64,000 bases of DNA from Minisyncoccota bacterium (lineage in GTDB: Bacteria > Patescibacteriota > Minisyncoccia > Moranbacterales > UBA2206). Shown here piece by piece: positions 31,544 to 38,727 of this stretch (position 1 is the first letter of the stretch; the number at the start of each line of letters is the position of its first letter). A program made the translations under genes and the position numbers. A model generated the notes under the pieces. That model worked only from the letters and a program-made list of their open reading frames with translations. It made no database searches and was not told where the DNA came from. The stretch lies in NCBI GenBank assembly GCA_031291955.1, contig JARLIA010000014.1, forward strand, positions 666 to 64,665. Direction: 5' to 3'.

Positions 31544-31867
31544 TTATTCCACGATCACTGCCGTCCCATAACACAACACTTCCGTCACACCATTCATAAC
31601 ATCGTTGGCGTCATAGCGAACGCAGATGATGGCGTTGGCGCCCGACTCTTCGGCGTGCTTAATCATAAGGTCATAGGCTTCTTCCCGAGCTTTCTCGCAT
31701 AATTCCGTAAAAAGAGAGATGTTTCCGCCAAGGATGGTCTGGAGACTGCCGCCCAAAGAACCGATGATGCTCCTCGACCGGACCGTTATCCCCCGGGCAA
31801 GTCCGAGATTTTGCATTATCCTTTTCCCCGGCACTTCGAGAGCCGTCGTCACGTTTTTATGATCCAT
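31544..31867 (-). CDS. YbjQ/UPF0145-family protein
   Basis: It is 107 aa, and the whole sequence matches the UPF0145 pattern. Confidence 0.7.
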   Translation of the reverse strand: MDHKNVTTALEVPGKRIMQNLGLARGITVRSRSIIGSLGGSLQTILGGNISLFTELCEKAREEAYDLMIKHAEESGANAIICVRYDANDVMNGVTEVLCYGTAVIVE

Positions 31868-31872
31868 AGTTT

Positions 31873-31900
31873 TATGTAAGTAATTAATTGCGTAATTATG
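31873..31900 (-). promoter_or_regulatory. TTACGCAATTAATTACTTACATAAAAC palindromic promoter/operator directly abutting the ybjQ ATG (leaderless)
   Basis: It is a variant of the TTACGTAA-TTAA-TTACGTAA element, and no SD precedes the start. Confidence 0.4.
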
Positions 31901-31915
31901 GTTAGCTTTATTTTT

Positions 31916-32659
31916 TTATAGCACCAGCTGGATCTCCCAATAATCGCCAGAGAGTTTGCTAGTGAAATATTTATAGGGCAGATAAAAATAGCCTTGGTCG
32001 CCCCAGCGCGCGCCCCAAGAGTTTCGGCAAATAACGAGTTGTCTGCTGTCGTCATATCCGACCGCGACCACCGCATGTCCGCCCAAGACTCGCTCACTGG
32101 ATTCCGGCAGGGGCACGATGCCGGTTTTGGCCACCGCGTCAGATTCGAAACTTTCATAAACGCTAAAACCAAAAACCACCGGCCTGCCCGCCAAAGCTTT
32201 TTTCAAAGCCGCGATTTGGGTGTTCACGCGCACATATTTCACCACTTCATATTTCAGCGCATCGGCATAACACTTGGCCGCCGGTTTGATTTTGAATTTC
32301 GAAATGACATACAGCCATTCTTTTTCCGGACAGTCACCCTGATTTTTAACGCTTTTGATCCCGTCCCGGATCGACGCGCCGGCGTCGCTTTGAACCGTGT
32401 TTTCCATCGCCCTTTCATTATAATAGATGAACAGCCGGCTCGGACTGATGAACCGCTCGCCTTGTTTTTTTCTTTCATAGTCCACGGCCGCCGCGATAGC
32501 GTTGGCGGTACAGCTGCCCAAATCGCCTTGATTATAGACCGATGGCATCCCGTCGCGCCAGTCGACCGATTTGGGAATTTTTATTTTTCTCGCGATGAAC
32601 TTGAAGTCCCGTTGGTCCGGCGTATCCGGCTTCCAGCCGTAGCGGTTTTTGTTTTTCAT
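31916..32659 (-). CDS. Papain-like cysteine peptidase (C1 family)
   Basis: The catalytic Cys lies in QGDLGSCTANA, the His in GGHAVVAVGYDD, and the Asn/Trp in NSWGARWG. Confidence 0.7.
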   Translation of the reverse strand: MKNKNRYGWKPDTPDQRDFKFIARKIKIPKSVDWRDGMPSVYNQGDLGSCTANAIAAAVDYERKKQGERFISPSRLFIYYNERAMENTVQSDAGASIRDGIKSVKNQGDCPEKEWLYVISKFKIKPAAKCYADALKYEVVKYVRVNTQIAALKKALAGRPVVFGFSVYESFESDAVAKTGIVPLPESSERVLGGHAVVAVGYDDSRQLVICRNSWGARWGDQGYFYLPYKYFTSKLSGDYWEIQLVL

Positions 32660-32660
32660 A

Positions 32661-32954
32661 TTATTTAATCAAATATAAATAGACCAGATATAGGCAAGCG
32701 CTGTTTTGAATGATGAGTAGAGGAATGCCAAGGAGGAAATACCACTTTTGGGTTTTATGTCGAAAGGCAAACATTCCGGCGAATACGCCTAAGCCTCCGA
32801 AAGCCGTTGCCAGAAAAAATAGCATCCCTTCTGAAATCCTCTCCGCGCCATTTTTTCGTGAACGATTCTTATCCAAAAGTATAACACTAAACGCCAACAA
32901 ATTCATTGCCAGAAAAAAAGTCCCCGCCATCATCACATAATTGCCTAGTTCCAT
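32661..32954 (-). CDS. DUF1294-family small membrane protein
   Basis: The segment RISEGMLFFLATAFGGLGVFAGMFAFRHKTQKWYF is present. Confidence 0.55.
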   Translation of the reverse strand: MELGNYVMMAGTFFLAMNLLAFSVILLDKNRSRKNGAERISEGMLFFLATAFGGLGVFAGMFAFRHKTQKWYFLLGIPLLIIQNSACLYLVYLYLIK

Positions 32955-32956
32955 TT

Positions 32957-32982
32957 TTTATGTACGTAATTAATTACATAAA
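32957..32982 (-). promoter_or_regulatory. TTATGTAATTAATTACGTACATAAAAA element abutting the DUF1294 ATG
   Basis: A palindromic octamer pair precedes a leaderless start. Confidence 0.4.
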
Positions 32983-33058
32983 CAATTATCTTGGAATAAT
33001 CCGGTATTTAAAGATGGGTTCATAACTGTATTTTTTTATAACGGGGTTCAGGGCTGGG

Positions 33059-33084
33059 TACGTAATTAATTACGTAATTCCATT
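33059..33084 (-). promoter_or_regulatory. Third copy, GGAATTACGTAATTAATTACGTACCC, with an adjacent TATAAT
   Basis: It is a perfect TTACGTAA-TTAA-TTACGTA palindrome. Confidence 0.35.
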
Positions 33085-33091
33085 ATACCAT

Positions 33092-33155
33092 CAAAACAAA
33101 AATACCCGAAAAACGGGTATTTTTGTGGAAGGTTGCGCCTTTCGGGCGTCATTTT
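33092..33155. terminator. Tandem terminator hairpins downstream of the RM operon
   Basis: The hairpins are atacccg-aaaaa-cgggtat-tttt and gcgcc-tttc-gggcg. Confidence 0.5.
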
Positions 33156-33246
33156 GGCAAGGCCGTGCAATCCAAATTATTGATTTACAATATTCCCTCA
33201 TGTCAATTAAACTCTACTTACTCGGTCGCATTTTCCAAGGAGACCT

Positions 33247-33429
33247 TTATTTATATTTACGCACCCCTTTGAATTTTTCACCATTGGATTTTTGATCCAT
33301 AAATAAATGAGTGTCTGTATCTATTTTGACCCATCTTTTAATTTTAGGATTAAAAACCTGCTCTCTATTTTTAACTTCCCCTCTTCGCGCGTTATCTCCG
33401 AATGGTTTATTTTTCGCCATATCCATCAC
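33247..33429 (-). CDS. Small basic hypothetical protein (60 aa) overlapping the hsdS 3' end
   Basis: The ORF is present but has no assignable family. Confidence 0.3.
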   Translation of the reverse strand: MMDMAKNKPFGDNARRGEVKNREQVFNPKIKRWVKIDTDTHLFMDQKSNGEKFKGVRKYK

Positions 33430-34831
33430 CCCCTTTCTCTATAAATTCTTCAACCTTTCTTTTTGCTTCCTCTAATAATTCTTTTGATTTTTTCCGCGCT
33501 TCGTATGACTGAATCACAAGTTCAGTGATTTTTTTCTGGATTTCTTTTGGTAGAATTGGAATCAAAACATTTTTGATCTGCTGCGGTTTCCAGTGCGCAA
33601 TAACTGATCCGCCAGCATCACGCTCAGCTTGCATTTGACCAATTTGAGAATTCAAACACAGTGCCAAATATTCTGCCTCAACTTCTTTGCTTTTCAACTT
33701 CAGGCGCAACGTTCCGCCCGACACAATTCCTTGAATATCTTTTTTCAAAACAAAAGCAATTCCCGGGGTTGCATCTTTTGTTAGCAATATTTCACCTTTT
33801 TTTGGTTCAAAATCATCTTTCAATTTTTCATAAAGCTTATCACTTAGATATTTTTGATTGCTTTCCGTGATTCCGAATTTTGTCATGCTACTAACCCGGA
33901 TAAAAATCTTACCTTCTTCTTGATATTCTTCCGCCCCAACTTCAATTCCCTTTTTCATCGAAACTAAATCGCCCAACTTGTGCACATTATGTTTTGCAAC
34001 CCTATCTTCTATTATCTTATATTTCGGCTGAAAATATTCCGCATCGATTCGATGTGCAATTTCGATATCGGAAAGATTTATGATTGATGATAACTTTTCT
34101 ACATTATCAAAACCGTCCAATTCCAATTCTCCCAAAAGTAAGTTTTCGGCTTGTTGATATTGCGTTTTAGCTTTCTCAAATTCATCCAAGCCAGCCAACA
34201 CTATCATTTTTATTTTTTGTTGAGCTTCAAGATTAACTTCGGGAAGAATTATTTTTTCAAGGCTATACAAATTCATGTGTCCTTGAACGCCTCCACTTGA
34301 TCCTCTATCGATCTGAAATTTTCCATATTTTGAATTCAGAAAAGCGGCTAAATATTCTGGCAATAGATTCTCTTTTGGTTTTATCAAAATAATATCCGCG
34401 GAATTTGCAACGGGATGATTCTCTGTAACGACACTAGCATTGCCAATTGACCCACTTCTGGCAAGCAAGACAAACCCCGGATAAACCTGGCTCTTTTTCA
34501 GTTTTTTATGAAATTCTTCGTCAATATAAACAATACCATTTTCAAAATCTGTAACAAATTCATCAACGTTTTGTGTTCTCAAAAGTGGAACTCCATCATC
34601 GCAAAAATGGCTCGCCATAGAAGACACAAAACCAACATCAATCTTTGGCGCCATCTCCTCCAATGTTAGTAACTCAAATTTTTTAAGATTTTTTTCCAAA
34701 TCCAAATATTCCGGCTGATAATATTCAGCATCCATCCGCATCGCGCCTTCGAGTTGAGATTTTTGAATTATGGAAAAATTAGTCATAAAATTTTTGAAAT
34801 ATTCCCCACAAATGAACGTATTAATAGGCAT
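33407..34831 (-). CDS. hsdS: Restriction-modification specificity (S) subunit, HsdS-like with two target-recognition domains
   Basis: The conserved N-terminal block RMDAEYYQPEY and the central repeat RIDAEYFQPKY are present. The true start may be the internal Met (MTNFS...). Confidence 0.8.
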   Translation of the reverse strand: MPINTFICGEYFKNFMTNFSIIQKSQLEGAMRMDAEYYQPEYLDLEKNLKKFELLTLEEMAPKIDVGFVSSMASHFCDDGVPLLRTQNVDEFVTDFENGIVYIDEEFHKKLKKSQVYPGFVLLARSGSIGNASVVTENHPVANSADIILIKPKENLLPEYLAAFLNSKYGKFQIDRGSSGGVQGHMNLYSLEKIILPEVNLEAQQKIKMIVLAGLDEFEKAKTQYQQAENLLLGELELDGFDNVEKLSSIINLSDIEIAHRIDAEYFQPKYKIIEDRVAKHNVHKLGDLVSMKKGIEVGAEEYQEEGKIFIRVSSMTKFGITESNQKYLSDKLYEKLKDDFEPKKGEILLTKDATPGIAFVLKKDIQGIVSGGTLRLKLKSKEVEAEYLALCLNSQIGQMQAERDAGGSVIAHWKPQQIKNVLIPILPKEIQKKITELVIQSYEARKKSKELLEEAKRKVEEFIEKGGDGYGEK

Positions 34832-34950
34832 AATATCAAGCTGTGGATAACTCCTTGCATAATCATACAGCTATGGTATTATGAGCTTGGTACTTGTAAG
34901 GGCTTTGGCCCTCTCACGGTTAAAACGTATAAACCGTAGCAAGTGCCAAA

Positions 34951-35442
34951 TCAATCATCCTCCATATTTCCTGCATGCAGGATTTTTTTATTGTTAAATT
35001 TGTTACCTGAATTTTTTTGATTGTTTTTCCAAAAAGGAATTAGGCTCCAAAAAAATTTATTTCCACCTTCAATTTCTTTAACTATTATTTTTATTCTCGC
35101 ACCATTTATTATAGCAACAAACCCATAATAACTAACTTCAACCATTTTATATTCCCATCTAGAATTAATTTTTTGTTGTTCAAACTTCCTTGTTTCATAA
35201 AATTCTTGTAAGGTATTTGACTTTTCCAATATATGAGGAGCGAGTTTTAACAACTTCAATCTTATATATTGATCACTTTTTATTCGAGCCTTGTTTTTAT
35301 TTTTGAATTTCAAATGTTCCAATCCCTTCGTATTAAAAGAAATCTTTCCACCCAAATAAGGACAATGAATTTGGCCTATTGTTTTGTAATAATTTTCGGC
35401 CTCTTCTTTTACCTTTAAAAATTTTATTTGATCAATCTCCAT
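34951..35442 (-). CDS. Hypothetical 163-aa protein between the RM methyltransferase and the S subunit
   Basis: Its start overlaps the stop of the upstream gene. No motif was recognised. Confidence 0.45.
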   Translation of the reverse strand: MEIDQIKFLKVKEEAENYYKTIGQIHCPYLGGKISFNTKGLEHLKFKNKNKARIKSDQYIRLKLLKLAPHILEKSNTLQEFYETRKFEQQKINSRWEYKMVEVSYYGFVAIINGARIKIIVKEIEGGNKFFWSLIPFWKNNQKNSGNKFNNKKILHAGNMEDD

Positions 35443-37355
35443 TATTTTTTCATAAACTTCAAAAACTCCTCCGCAATTTCGTCTAGATCGTGATCAATAA
35501 TTTTCTTTCCGCCGGCATCATACATAACATTCCCCTCGCTGTCTTTTTTATAGATATAATCCCCTGAATTGTCTTTGCCGCCTTTCTTGGAAACTGCCAT
35601 AAAAATCGGATAATCTTCGGGGATTTTTTCATCCTCATTCCATTTTTGCAAAAACAGAACTGATGTTTTTGTGCCGGTGTGCGGTTTGAAGGTGTTGTCA
35701 TGCAGTCCCACCACTGCCAACAGACGCGCCTTGCTCAAAACAAACCGCCGCACATATTCCATCTGCGTATTGTTCAAAACTCCTTGCGGCAAAACGATTG
35801 CCATCCTTCCGCCGGGCTTGAGAAAATTAAGATCGCGTTCAATGAACAAAACGTCGCGTGAAACTTTGTTTTGATGCTTGGATGTTTTTTCAAAATTTTT
35901 GTCATGTTTAAATCCAAGATCATAACGATTCAAAATCACACCTTTGATCTCTCCAGCAAATGGCGGATTGGTCAGCACGATGTCAAAATTAAAGTCAGTC
36001 ATTTTTTCCTGGTTTCTTCGGTTCTCATCAGAATCCTTGAATGTTCGCAAAAACGGTCGGAATTTCGCATGCGCTTGTTCATTCCAAACTTCACTGTCCA
36101 GCGAGTTAGCATTGGTCACATTTGTTTTACCATCGCCTGCAATGAGCATCATAGCTTTTCCAATTTTCACTGAGCGCGGATCAAAATCAATTCCGTACAA
36201 ATGTTTTTCCGCATAATCTTTTTGCTTTGCTTTGTAATCATCTTCGAAATTTTTCTTGTTTATTTCTTTGTCCCACACATATTGCATAGCATGCAACAAA
36301 AATCCGCAACTGCCCGCAGCAGTATCAATGATGAAATCTTTTGAAGTCGGCGCCAGCATTTTCACCGCCATGTCAATCACATGACGCGGCGTGAAATATT
36401 GGCCTTTTTCGCCTTTAGCATCCAAGTTAATCAGATATTCAAAGGCATCATCGATCACCTGCAGATTAGAACCAAAAAGGCGATATTTTTGCAAAAGAGA
36501 AATTGCCGGCACGATGGCATTTTCCGGAATTTCTATTTCGTCATTCGACTTGAAAACATCACGCCACTGATTTTTGGAATCCTCAAAAAGCCGCTGAATA
36601 TTGTTTAGATTTTCCTTGTTAGAAGCGCCGGCAATCACCCGAAATCTGCGATTTTCATTTCTAGGCGTTTCGATTTCATCATACAGCTTGGCATAAATAA
36701 GTTTGAAAATTTCATCAAACGAATCCACGCCGCTGTTGGCCAAAACAACTTCTTGCAAATCATAAATGAGTTGTTGCAAATTAGGAATTTCATCAAGATC
36801 ACTATATACGATTTTCTTTGAACGTACATCATCAACCGTTTCGTTAAATTTGGGAATTTCCGGCAAGTCCTCAAAAAGATTTGGGTCGGTTCGTAAAATA
36901 TTATTTTGAAGTTTTCCGTCTGTCAAAACGAGAATTGGCGCACCGGTCGCATTGGCGTAGCTTTTCAATTGCCCCAGACCATCTTTCACGTCGGGTTTTT
37001 TCACTTCAACCACAAGATAGGGAGTTTTGCCGTCTTCACGATAAATCACAATGTCCGCACGTTTTTTCCCAATCTCTCGCCCAAATTGCACATCTACTTC
37101 CACATCCATCCGGTCAAGTGGATATTTATAAAAATTTAATAATTTATAAATCATGAGTTGACGAACTATCTCCTCCGGCTTAGCTACTAACTTTTTATTT
37201 CTTTTTAAACATGGCAAATAAAACTTTCCTTCTTTTTCAAAAAGATCCAAGACTTCTTCAATTTTAATTCCCTCAAAAACAGAAAGTCCATATTGCATAT
37301 CCGGATTGCGAAAAATTTTCCCCAAAATTTCACTTGTCTTTTTTTGATCCGCCAT
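35442..37355 (-). CDS. Fused restriction-modification enzyme: N-terminal HsdR-N-like PD-(D/E)xK nuclease domain plus gamma-class N6-adenine DNA methyltransferase (BcgI-A-like / Type IIB-IIG)
   Basis: The N-terminus shows RADIVIY...PYLVVEVKKP...APILVLTDG, matching the HsdR N-terminal fold. The MTase motif DIVLTNPPFAG is present. At 637 aa there is no helicase and no separate hsdR. Confidence 0.7.
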   Translation of the reverse strand: MADQKKTSEILGKIFRNPDMQYGLSVFEGIKIEEVLDLFEKEGKFYLPCLKRNKKLVAKPEEIVRQLMIYKLLNFYKYPLDRMDVEVDVQFGREIGKKRADIVIYREDGKTPYLVVEVKKPDVKDGLGQLKSYANATGAPILVLTDGKLQNNILRTDPNLFEDLPEIPKFNETVDDVRSKKIVYSDLDEIPNLQQLIYDLQEVVLANSGVDSFDEIFKLIYAKLYDEIETPRNENRRFRVIAGASNKENLNNIQRLFEDSKNQWRDVFKSNDEIEIPENAIVPAISLLQKYRLFGSNLQVIDDAFEYLINLDAKGEKGQYFTPRHVIDMAVKMLAPTSKDFIIDTAAGSCGFLLHAMQYVWDKEINKKNFEDDYKAKQKDYAEKHLYGIDFDPRSVKIGKAMMLIAGDGKTNVTNANSLDSEVWNEQAHAKFRPFLRTFKDSDENRRNQEKMTDFNFDIVLTNPPFAGEIKGVILNRYDLGFKHDKNFEKTSKHQNKVSRDVLFIERDLNFLKPGGRMAIVLPQGVLNNTQMEYVRRFVLSKARLLAVVGLHDNTFKPHTGTKTSVLFLQKWNEDEKIPEDYPIFMAVSKKGGKDNSGDYIYKKDSEGNVMYDAGGKKIIDHDLDEIAEEFLKFMKK

Positions 37356-37356
37356 A

Positions 37357-37998
37357 TTATTTGTTTATTTTAGAAAGATTTAGAATTACCTTGCCTTGAA
37401 ATTGAACTTCGCCGGGAATAATTATCATTTTTTCATAAGCCGGATTTTCCGGTTGCAAATATCTTTTTCCGCCATCAGCGACAAAGCGCTTTACAGTCGT
37501 GCCCGCATCCGTTCGCGCAATCACAATATCACCGCTTTTATATTCTTTTGATTCTTTGATAAGCAGACTATCACCATCATCGATTCCGGCATTAATCATA
37601 GAATCTCCAGAAATTTGAATAACAAAAACTCTATCTTTTGATTCATTTATTTTTTCATTTTTTAAAACTTTTTCAGATATTGGGAAAAAGGTGAATGCAT
37701 TAGCAAAAGAATCGAGATATGATCCGCCGGCGCTAACGCCAGCCATTTTAATCAAAGGATCTCTTCCAATTTCCTTATAACCCAAAGGCAAAATTCTTAT
37801 CCCTCTCGCCTGACCATCTTCTCTTTTTATATATTCCTTTCTTTCAAGCGTATCTAAAAAGTTTATAACCGACTGGTTCGAAGATACGCCCAGCTCTTCC
37901 TTAAAATCAGAAATAGACGGCGGAAAGCCGGAACTTTCCAAAAATGTGTAAATAAATTCTAAAACTTTTTTTTGTTTTGGGGTAAGTTTAAAACTCAT
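37357..37998 (-). CDS. lexA: LexA-type repressor (winged-helix plus S24 peptidase)
   Basis: A LexA-like N-terminal HTH is followed by a C-terminal S24 domain with ISGDSM (Ser) and TTVKRF (Lys). Its stop is 1 nt from the RM start codon. Confidence 0.8.
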   Translation of the reverse strand: MSFKLTPKQKKVLEFIYTFLESSGFPPSISDFKEELGVSSNQSVINFLDTLERKEYIKREDGQARGIRILPLGYKEIGRDPLIKMAGVSAGGSYLDSFANAFTFFPISEKVLKNEKINESKDRVFVIQISGDSMINAGIDDGDSLLIKESKEYKSGDIVIARTDAGTTVKRFVADGGKRYLQPENPAYEKMIIIPGEVQFQGKVILNLSKINK

Positions 37999-38073
37999 AT
38001 ACCCATTATATATGACTGTTTGTACACGTCAAGTTCTTTACATAAGGCTATTTATTCAAAACTGTTGATAACT

Positions 38074-38345
38074 TTACTTCTCCTCCCCCATCCCATACTT
38101 AAACTTCATCCCCAGATATGTACCGGCGGCGACACCGGCGGCATAGATGATGATCGCGACAAAGCTCCTTTCTTTGTCTAGCTGATCGATGATATTGTAG
38201 ATGACCAGCATTGTCGTGATCGTCACCAGAAATGACATTGAGACGGCCGGAGCGATTTTGTGTTTGGCGATATACCGCCAGTTGAGCGTCAGCAAAAAAT
38301 CCTGGAATATCCCGACAAAAAAATAGATTATAAGATAGTATGCCA
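38074..38345 (-). CDS. Small 3-TM membrane protein
   Basis: It is hydrophobic, and its ATG lies 2 nt after the upstream small ORF. Confidence 0.4.
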
Positions 38346-38347
38346 TA

Positions 38348-38524
38348 TTATTTTTTCCAATCCTCAATAACCAACTTGCTCCCCGATTTCTTCACCACCA
38401 CCTTCTGCTTCTCCCGCCATTTTAGTTCGCGGACGAGTTCGATCGGAATCGTGACGGCGATGGAACGCTGGCCGACTTTGGTCAGTTTCCGGATGTTTTT
38501 GTCTTCCAATTTTCTTGTGGGCAT
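38348..38524 (-). CDS. AbrB/MazE/SpoVT-type small DNA-binding protein (58 aa)
   Basis: The translation is MPTRKLEDKNIRKLTKVGQRSIAVTIPIELVRELKW..., which has the swapped-hairpin AbrB fold signature. It falls below the ORF-track cutoff. Confidence 0.4.
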   Translation of the reverse strand: MPTRKLEDKNIRKLTKVGQRSIAVTIPIELVRELKWREKQKVVVKKSGSKLVIEDWKK

Positions 38525-38540
38525 TTTTTTGTTTTAAAAA

Positions 38541-38575
38541 TTATGTACGTAATGTATTACGTAATCTATTACTTA
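38541..38575 (-). promoter_or_regulatory. TTACGTAAT-ACA-TTACGTACATAA element upstream of the AbrB-like gene
   Basis: This is the fourth copy of the palindromic octamer pair. Confidence 0.4.
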
Positions 38576-38727
38576 CATCCTCAGTCTACGCCCAAAATGT
38601 CCCCCTGGCAATAAAAAATGGACTGGCAGATGGAGATCGATTTCAAATAATAAACATAAAAAAAGCTACCGGACCCGTCCGGTAGCTGTCAAAATCAAGG
38701 AAAGCGTTCCTGATCAAAACAAAAAAA

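Follow-up and report, generated by a model that had tools for sequence, protein, structure and literature searches.

The sequence at hand for this organism comprised a stretch of 64,000 nt (the window) and three near-identical short contigs. The features considered here lie on the minus strand of the window (Table 1). Gene identities given in a first-pass annotation of this DNA (YbjQ_1, DUF1294, MazE/AbrB PF04014 and LexA) were confirmed. The ATG at 31867 is the likely ybjQ start because the Pfam match begins at residue 6. The gene for the small membrane protein DUF5698 is presumably co-transcribed with the abrB-like gene that precedes it. A bona fide lexA (TIGR00498, 141 bits versus a cut-off of 111) is found 0.5 kb downstream on the same strand, and a type I M/S operon also lies downstream in the window.

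Table 1. Genes, putative operators and promoter-like sequences of the locus (positions in the window)
Feature	Position	Strand	Details
YbjQ_1 family protein gene, putative target	31544-31867	-	Pfam E = 1.2e-28
Two-unit putative operator	31876-31895	-	TTACGCAA-TTAA-TTACTTAC, then ATAAAACT, then YbjQ ATG
-10-like CATAAT, weak candidate	31895-31900	-	abuts YbjQ operator with 1 nt overlap; no good -35
Putative target operon	31916-32954	-	DUF1294 membrane protein (32661-32954) and papain-family C1 peptidase (31916-32659)
Two-unit putative operator	32962-32981	-	TTATGTAA-TTAA-TTACGTAC, then ATAAAAA, then DUF1294 ATG
Promoter-like sequence, prediction	32985-33012	-	TTTAAA (33012-33007), 16 nt, GATAAT (32990-32985); 9/12 match
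Two-unit putative operator	33058-33077	-	TTACGTAA-TTAA-TTACGTAC; perfect palindromic core
Extended -10, putative	33082-33090	-	TGGTATAAT, read from sequence; 4 nt upstream of the 33058-33077 operator
DUF5698 small membrane protein gene	38074-38346	-	start 2 nt past abrB-like stop
abrB-like gene, proposed autorepressor	38348-38524	-	58 aa; stand-alone swapped-hairpin (AbrB/MazE/SpoVT) domain
Three-unit putative operator array	38545-38576	-	GTAAGTAA-TAGA-TTACGTAA-TACA-TTACGTAC; 12-bp period; upstream of abrB-like gene
Promoter-like sequence, prediction	38583-38611	-	TTGCCA (38611-38606), 17 nt, TAGACT (38588-38583); 9/12 consensus

Phased palindromic octamers in the window and in metagenomes

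The 18-bp palindrome TACGTAATTAATTACGTA (TACGTAATTAATTACGTAA-type consensus) matched the window five times with no more than three mismatches (31877-94, 32963-80, 33059-76, 38546-63 and 38558-75). All five matches fall inside 31876-38576, a 6.7-kb segment that contains the abrB-like gene. Shuffled sequence gave an expectation of 0.02, none of 100 shuffles reached five matches, and the rest of the 64 kb held no additional match with up to five mismatches. The exact octamer TTACGTAA occurred only twice (0.8 expected), which alone is not significant. Palindromic elements thus stand at the four places where they had been annotated, but not with an exact TTACGTAA in each; the remaining octamers are degenerate (TTACGCAA, TTACTTAC, TTATGTAA, TTACGTAC and GTAAGTAA). 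The repeat unit is a degenerate near-palindromic octamer followed by a 4-bp AT-rich spacer (TTAA, TAGA or TACA), with a period of exactly 12 bp. An 'ACA' spacer reported earlier was a mis-parse, the spacer being 4 bp throughout, and a description of every site as two octamers is right for three sites but not for the fourth, which is a three-unit array. On the minus strand, one element is indeed followed by CATAAAACT-ATG (YbjQ, ATG 31867) and another by CATAAAAA-ATG (DUF1294, ATG 32954).

The 'small local regulon' of the first-pass annotation holds within the window; the exact 20-mer site also occurred more than 120 times in metagenomes, before highly varied genes. An abrB-like gene was present in 10 of 120 metagenomic loci carrying the exact 20-mer, with the site directly upstream in five to six of those, and neither YbjQ nor DUF1294 was found in any of the 120. 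A scan of viral contigs for TACGTAATNNATTACGTA returned 25 single matches, a background-like result. Among the 120 metagenomic copies, 22 were inside 36-bp palindromes with A-run and T-run flanks, and convergent gene contexts exceeded divergent ones (19 versus 8). Copies of this kind, between convergent genes, suggest a different role there. They also favor a reading in which the palindromes work as RNA or DNA structure (hairpin, terminator or attenuator) or are a dispersed repeat, rather than being protein operators. We consider that reading very improbable. The RNA of the window sites folds at 0, -3.2, -5.0 and -7.5 kcal/mol, only the last value being unusual, compared with -17.5 kcal/mol for a real terminator (33097-33125). 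Half-site mismatches at 31876-31895 are non-compensatory, and direct phasing of three units at exactly 12 bp is not a property of hairpins. With weak folds, no T-run (U-run) after the sites and no Rfam match at E up to 1, an intrinsic terminator or structured RNA was rejected for the window sites.

Promoter-like hexamers and predicted transcription starts

A -10-like hexamer lies -1 to 6 nt upstream of each of the four sites on the minus strand, by consensus prediction. The promoter hexamers are weak consensus matches (9/12), and their counts in the scanned regions are close to shuffle expectation. In 44 related loci of the same operator class, the 11 positions immediately before an array were enriched in -10-like hexamers approximately 2.8-fold per position. 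At the abrB-like gene, TAGACT ends 6 nt before the array and thus predicts a start at approximately 38576, the first operator base. GATAAT stops 3 nt short of the proximal DUF1294 operator. The third copy is no orphan, being preceded by the minus-strand extended -10 TGGTATAAT (33090-33082); this element points to DUF1294 and, with the operator at 33058-33077, would form a distal promoter-operator. With a -10-like hexamer ahead of an operator, transcription is predicted to begin within the operator and to give leaders of roughly 20-50 nt. Fusion of promoter and operator, as originally proposed, is a weak proposal; by consensus prediction a -10-like hexamer adjoins all four sites.

The earlier suggestion of leaderless transcripts was based on the lack of a Shine-Dalgarno sequence. 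That lack is real, but the inference from it is weak because genes of this genome normally do without one: among 56 crude gene calls in the window, only six have a Shine-Dalgarno sequence and about 90% do not. We took as leaderless geometry a -10 hexamer TAnnnT ending approximately 6-7 nt before the start codon. No TAnnnT was found at -12 to -7 in the abrB-like gene, DUF1294 or ybjQ, where CATAA(A/T) is 2, 3 or 16 nt from the ATG. In contrast, lexA displays TATAAT, 6 nt and ATG, and 8 of 13 abrB-like genes of other operator classes also have leaderless geometry.

The lexA promoter bears on which protein might bind the sites. If the motif were this lineage's LexA (SOS) box, LexA would repress these promoters together with an abrB-DUF5698-lexA unit; LexA boxes are palindromic and differ between phyla, and lexA is downstream on the same strand. 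Against this, lexA has a strong promoter of its own (TTGACG-16-TATAAT, 11/12) that lacks the site, and recA, uvr and polymerase genes were not found among the genes downstream of sites. Only three of 80 loci with orthologues had lexA at a distance of up to 10 kb from the abrB-like gene, while arrays persisted, and the 120 metagenomic loci with the exact 20-mer held no lexA homologue. Three phased units are also a poor fit to a LexA dimer. With the motif upstream of neither lexA nor SOS genes and hardly any co-occurrence with lexA, this candidate was rejected for the window; LexA, which the first-pass annotation had listed as a possible binder, is an exceedingly improbable one.

A stand-alone AbrB-type domain and its upstream arrays

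By profile threshold and topology, the 58-residue protein encoded by the abrB-like gene is an AbrB/MazE/SpoVT domain. It matched PF04014 at 26.4 bits (gathering score 24.7, E = 6.5e-6) and no NCBIfam model; its profile match to PDB AbrB was weak (E = 0.6), with approximately 30% identity over 46 residues. An AF2 monomer model of moderate confidence (pLDDT 77) has a b-b-a-b-b order, with strands at residues 14-17, 21-24, 42-47 and 50-55, a helix at 28-34, and residues 18-20 at the tip of the beta1-beta2 hairpin. The top 17 PDB matches in Foldseek were the DNA-binding domains of MazE, AbrB (AbrB-N), SpoVT or VapB, with TM up to 0.68. Homologues in Patescibacteria form 418 clusters at 57-86% identity.

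Since the best Pfam and structure matches include the MazE and VapB antitoxins, the protein could be the antitoxin of a type II toxin-antitoxin pair and the palindromes the operator of that operon. Some source databases label homologues as antitoxins, and Fic/DOC genes are next in 2 of 49 loci. Genes downstream are nevertheless heterogeneous, with no recurrent MazF, PIN or other toxin family, and the next gene in the window encodes the DUF5698 membrane protein. The protein ends with its domain and lacks a C-terminal toxin-binding tail, and sites also stand before separate genes. Having found neither a conserved adjacent toxin nor a toxin-binding extension, we rejected a type II operon for the window, the chance of which we put as very slight indeed.

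For the 58-residue AbrB-type protein as regulator of its own gene, upstream regions of orthologues were informative. Eighty Patescibacteria loci with unrelated genomic contexts were gathered by means of the protein alone and examined by autocorrelation, a strict array scan and a lag score. Autocorrelation of the 70 nt before the abrB-like ATG peaked at lag 12 (0.426 versus 0.31 in shuffled sequence), with a further peak at lag 24. A lag-12 score of at least 14/20 was seen in 42 of 76 testable abrB upstream regions as opposed to 23 of 1105 controls (2%). Raising the threshold to 16 left 21 regions at lag 12, and no region scored as high at lag 10, 11 or 13. When 1.14 Mb was searched for three near-palindromic octamers in phase, with no motif assumed, 28 arrays emerged, 21 of them directly before an abrB-like gene (19 within 130 nt of the ATG and 2 before second paralogues), in a space making up under 1% of the sequence searched. 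Locus L036 has abrB paralogues with their own site type. At another locus (L233), GTAAGTAA-TGTA-TTACGTAA-TACA-TTACTTAC, the counterpart of the window array, precedes an orthologue of 84% identity. About a quarter of the orthologous loci in the 80-locus set had no recognisable array.

As the first-pass annotation had suggested for a single regulator, the elements have the appearance of operators, here of a putative oligomeric protein. Targets other than the regulator are not conserved between genomes. YbjQ was near the abrB-like gene at a single locus (L100), which has no clear site; because YbjQ and DUF1294 do not recur as targets, regulon membership beyond the regulator is not conserved.

Octamer type, hairpin loop and a putative autorepressor

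Octamer sequence shifts by lineage together with the tip of the first beta-hairpin. The loop KVG-(K/Q/G)(Q/H/R)S accompanies TTACGTAA, (G/Q)TS accompanies ATACGTAT in two separate clades, SG-NSY accompanies ATACTGAT, MGR(A/E)GSS accompanies GTTAAGTAAC and MG-GGRS accompanies GCTACTGAATTAATTCAGTAGC. Mutual information with operator class was highest at residues 16-20 and the loop insertion, and other columns of equal variability had none. This covariation is correlative and confounded by phylogeny, in that any lineage-specific factor would track the protein tree as well; the signal is concentrated in the hairpin loop, however, and this speaks against such a factor. Given that the protein is very conserved (57-86% identity) and the sites very different, a few loop residues would need to carry specificity.

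A different transcription factor might bind the arrays, with the abrB-like gene merely its most conserved target. Site classes follow lineages, as they would with any co-evolving factor, and sites stand before many unrelated genes. We judge this unlikely. The arrays accompany the abrB-like gene into unrelated genomic contexts, and the 21 of 28 arrays found de novo before abrB-like genes include those of paralogues with a site type of their own. Covariation is concentrated in the hairpin with which this protein would read DNA, and autoregulation is the rule for the swapped-hairpin fold (AbrB, MazE and VapB). Collectively, these observations make the AbrB/MazE/SpoVT-type protein of 58 residues (gene at 38348-38524) the probable binder of the repeats. 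Conserved upstream sites, 12-bp phasing and hairpin-loop covariation strongly support the proposal in the first-pass annotation that this gene is a candidate autoregulator.

From these data we infer that the protein binds, in what stoichiometry, that it represses and where transcription starts. One swapped-hairpin dimer would occupy each octamer, with each of its beta1-beta2 hairpins reading one half-site through its tip, and adjacent dimers may fill the array cooperatively, two or three units in strict 12-bp register making up an operator. As each array begins -1 to 6 nt after a -10-like hexamer, bound protein would cover the transcription start and repress. Negative autoregulation would follow from repression of the protein's own operon (abrB-like and DUF5698 genes). 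The other predicted targets are ybjQ and, through two promoter-operators in tandem, the operon for DUF1294 and the C1 peptidase.

Several known systems resemble this arrangement. AbrB, Abh and SpoVT of Bacillus subtilis repress their own promoters and many unrelated genes, and their hairpin arginines and loops contact DNA. They have the N-terminal fold in common with the 58-residue protein, according to weak profile matches and Foldseek (2fy9, 2k1n, 1yfb and 2w1t). AbrB itself carries a tetramerisation domain at its C-terminus and lacks a crisp consensus site, whereas the protein described here is a bare domain with a beta1-beta2 hairpin four residues longer and predicted sites that are sharply defined phased octamers. 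MazE is the best structural match (1ub4_C, TM 0.68). MazE/VapB type II antitoxins autoregulate via palindromes or repeats overlapping the promoter; the abrB-like protein differs in having no toxin partner or toxin-binding tail and in sites that putatively control separate genes. MraZ, with a double AbrB-like domain, forms large rings and binds a row of evenly spaced short repeats immediately past its own mraZ/dcw promoter, which it represses. Those repeats are direct GTG-type boxes spaced by approximately 10 bp, unlike the palindromic octamers at 12 bp and the single-domain protein of the present system. Controller (C) proteins of restriction-modification (RM) systems are likewise small autoregulated repressors whose gene comes first, ahead of RM genes, as the putatively autoregulated abrB-like gene does: a DNA methylase or restriction component is the next gene in roughly a quarter of 49 loci. 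C proteins, however, are helix-turn-helix proteins with C-boxes, in contrast to the AbrB-like fold here; much of the cargo is of other types, and in the window the RM genes have a promoter of their own (that of lexA).

The putative regulator-operator arrangement, with lineage-specific sites, is conserved across many uncultured Patescibacteria (CPR bacteria), and the putative regulator is previously undescribed among autoregulated swapped-hairpin repressors. A search of literature full text found no paper on AbrB with Patescibacteria or the candidate phyla radiation. Cargo behind the module is often of RM, defence or mobile type, including RadC, Fic, MazG, T5orf172, GmrSD and a ThsB-TIR island (L230). 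More tentatively, the 58-residue protein could represent a Patescibacteria-wide family of minimal re-programmable repressors, in which hairpin-tip residues set the octamer, acting as a portable switch before variable cargo and as a counterpart in function to RM controller proteins, though built on another fold.

Patescibacteria do not grow alone and encode few regulators, and to our knowledge almost nothing is known of their transcriptional control. The putative regulator-operator pair is present in hundreds of species and is open to test in vitro or in E. coli reporters. How the swapped-hairpin fold recognises bases is still poorly understood, AbrB included, and the natural covariation of loop and octamer could help to explain it. 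That the module so often sits in front of restriction-modification or defence genes hints at control of accessory DNA. Were the protein indeed a portable switch, an octamer recognition code would be readable from a few hairpin-tip residues, and it could belong to the small set of dedicated transcription factors that these reduced genomes encode.

Palindromic elements and predicted promoters in the window

All four related palindromes proposed in the first-pass annotation are present in the window, and its gene identities (YbjQ_1; DUF1294 followed by a C1 peptidase; a MazE/AbrB-type protein of 58 aa; LexA) are correct. The observation is real but its anatomy required correction: the octamer is degenerate, the spacer is exactly 4 bp, and the reported 'ACA' spacer was a mis-parse. 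The exact octamer TTACGTAA is not unusual, with 2 occurrences in 64 kb versus 0.8 expected. The 18-bp palindrome TACGTAATTAATTACGTA at ≤3 mismatches had five matches in the 64-kb window versus 0.02 expected, a count reached by 0 of 100 shuffles; relaxation to ≤5 mismatches added no match elsewhere in the window. Because the last two of these matches overlap in a 12-bp register, the fourth element is a three-unit array. The remaining three have two units each, separated by TTAA. One repeat unit thus comprises a degenerate octamer and a 4-bp spacer of fixed length. Between the two DUF1294 operators is a mini-ORF of 17 codons, with its ATG at 33024.

Coordinates of putative operator, promoter and operon features in the window
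Feature	Position	Strand	Details
TACGTAATTAATTACGTA matches (≤3 mismatches)	31877-94, 32963-80, 33059-76, 38546-63, 38558-75		window scan
Three-unit array	38576-38545	minus	GTAAGTAA-TAGA-TTACGTAA-TACA-TTACGTAC
-10-like TAGACT	38588-38583	minus	abrB-like gene; TTGCCA -35; 6 nt to site
-10-like TGGTATAAT	33090-33082	minus	'orphan' site; extended -10; 4 nt to site
-10-like GATAAT	32990-32985	minus	DUF1294; TTTAAA -35; 3 nt to site
-10-like CATAAT	31900-31895	minus	ybjQ; no extra feature; abuts site
Strong bidirectional terminator hairpin	33097-33125		-17.5 kcal/mol, z = -6.7; between end of lexA-RM operon and distal DUF1294 promoter-operator
lexA	37357-37998	minus	heads apparent operon 33247-38032
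Type I methylase	35442-37355	minus	apparent lexA operon
LPD3-domain protein	34951-35442	minus	apparent lexA operon
Type I specificity subunit	33407-34831	minus	apparent lexA operon
60-aa protein	33247-33429	minus	apparent lexA operon; matches PADLOC candidate PDC-S38

A reading of the sites as RNA hairpins was rejected: they fold weakly (0 to -7.5 kcal/mol) versus the terminator hairpin of the table, and none has an Rfam match.

Leaderless transcripts had been proposed from the missing Shine-Dalgarno (SD) sequence. Of the 56 crude gene calls made for the window, only 6 have an SD-like motif within 18 nt of the start, and operon-internal genes also go without one, so its absence is uninformative on leaders. 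Upstream regions are A-rich in place of an SD, and this organism seems to start translation largely without one. Each of the four sites is preceded on the minus strand by a -10-like hexamer. In 44 related loci whose operators fall in the same classes, the density of these hexamers per position is ~2.8-fold higher over the 11 positions immediately before the array than it is farther upstream. With this placement, transcription is predicted to start within the first unit and to give leaders of ~20-50 nt consisting of operator DNA, a classic repressor position. The 'CATAA' previously noted before two ATGs combines the end of a last unit that recurs, TTAC(G/T)TAC, with the ATAA spacer, and is too near these ATGs for a -10 role there. 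A leaderless start is not indicated by sequence for the site-bearing genes of the window. The idea is not absurd, since leaderless geometry (TAnnnT, 5-8 nt, ATG) is found in 8 of 13 abrB-like genes of other operator classes and in lexA. At six relatives' loci (L039, L040, L062, L065, L085, L031), an array of GCTACTGAATT- or CTCNNGAG-type units is followed by a TATAAT and then, after 6 nt, by the abrB-like ATG; in these lineages the regulator family thus has a second architecture, one that does look leaderless.

The AbrB-like family and its upstream arrays

Homologues of the 58-aa protein form 418 clusters of 57-86% identity across Parcubacteria-type lineages. Proteins identical to those of the window are encoded by a Candidatus Pacebacteria MAG and by two Logan assemblies, which places the window in the Patescibacteria (CPR). 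We fetched 80 species-level loci by protein alone. Their neighborhoods are unrelated to the window (YbjQ near one), and most carry two or three tandem units directly before the abrB-like ATG. Autocorrelation of the 70 nt upstream peaked at lag 12 (0.426 versus 0.31 in shuffles) and again at lag 24. Lag-12 self-similarity of at least 14/20 was reached in 42 of 76 abrB upstream regions, compared with 23 of 1105 for the other genes of these loci; with the threshold at 16, lag 12 kept 21 cases and lags 10, 11 and 13 kept none. A sequence-free scan of 1.14 Mb for three near-palindromic octamers in 12-bp phase found 28 arrays, 19 within 130 nt upstream of an abrB-like ATG and 2 more before second abrB paralogues. 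A close relative with 84% identity retains the same three-unit array.

Some genomes encode two abrB-like paralogues. Those of L036 (3515-3546 and 4000-4047) differ in octamer type, a hint of orthogonal regulator-operator pairs, and those of L078 (4440-4471 and 5997-6028) are near-identical in both gene and array, suggesting recent duplication. Several MAGs with the Patescibacteria-type gene and operator (L033, L038, L049, L052, L083 and others) are titled 'uncultured Gammaproteobacteria', 'Bdellovibrionales' or 'Bacteroidaceae bacterium' and are probably mislabelled bins or contigs.

The octamer varies by lineage (TTACGTAA, ATACGTAT, ATACTGAT, GTTAAGTAAC, CTCNNGAG or GCTACTGAATTAATTCAGTAGC), and its classes track the loop between the first two strands of the protein. 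The loop KVG-(K/Q/G)(Q/H/R)S pairs with TTACGTAA, and (G/Q)TS pairs with ATACGTAT in two separate clades. When alignment columns were scored for mutual information with operator class, the signal was concentrated in the loop insertion and at window residues 16-20 (z up to 18); columns elsewhere with an equal or larger number of residue types gave none. In a structure model, the beta1-beta2 hairpin has residues 18-20 at its tip, and the closest matches among solved structures are the DNA-binding domains of MazE, AbrB, SpoVT and VapB. In AbrB, the hairpins and their arginines contact DNA. This covariation, which remains correlative, is as expected of a protein that recognizes the array in front of its own gene. 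A toxin-antitoxin reading fails because no partner gene is conserved and the 58-aa protein has no C-terminal tail.

LexA, metagenomic copies and candidate targets

The other regulator suggested initially, LexA, passes the LexA equivalog model and is a poor candidate binder, since its own promoter has no operator site, no SOS-type gene adjoins the sites, and no lexA homologue occurs among the 120 listed loci with the exact 20-mer TTACGTAATTAATTACGTAA. Among the 80 protein-fetched loci, lexA is nearby in 3. Its near-consensus promoter (TTGACG-16-TATAAT) ends 6 nt before the ATG, making lexA itself likely leaderless. An RM-like operon led by LexA is unusual; no restriction (R) subunit was seen in it.

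The 20-mer occurs in at least 120 metagenomic stretches. Over the 120 short loci listed, the abrB-like gene is present in 10, with the site directly upstream in 5-6, and gene contexts are convergent in 19 versus divergent in 8. In 22 (L119, L137, L141, L154, L169, L223 and others of the set L110-L229), the 20-mer is the core of a perfect palindrome of greater length that includes both an A-run and a T-run, AAAAAGAA-TTACGTAATTAATTACGTAA-TTCTTTTT. These embedded copies may be bidirectional terminator-like hairpins or a dispersed repeat reusing operator sequence.

Within the window, the regulator is predicted to act on its own operon, which includes DUF5698, on the operon of DUF1294 and the C1 peptidase via two promoter-operators, and on ybjQ. 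Genes behind sites elsewhere are heterogeneous (class I tRNA synthetases, ClpB, MsrB, SmpB, NifU, TspO, RhuM, GNAT, GmrSD, ArsR). Of 49 loci, roughly a quarter have a gene for a DNA methylase or restriction component next after the regulator, and RadC, Fic, MazG-like and T5orf172 proteins recur in that position. In L230 (10001-19000; regulator 84% identical), a defence island lies downstream of the regulator (MazG-like, SLFN-type helicase, ThsB-TIR, 8xMP, Mrr, HTH-SocA/Panacea, RhuM-Fic, KilA-N), and the sole TTACGTAA-type site is ~150 nt upstream of the regulator.

We found no literature description of this protein family or its 12-bp operator code, and no curated NCBIfam model matches the 58-aa protein. 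Comparative genomics lends good support to the AbrB-type candidate named at first pass, which would autoregulate through the arrays; binding, stoichiometry and sign of regulation are inferred. The proposed system is of a known kind, an autoregulated swapped-hairpin repressor with phased operators.
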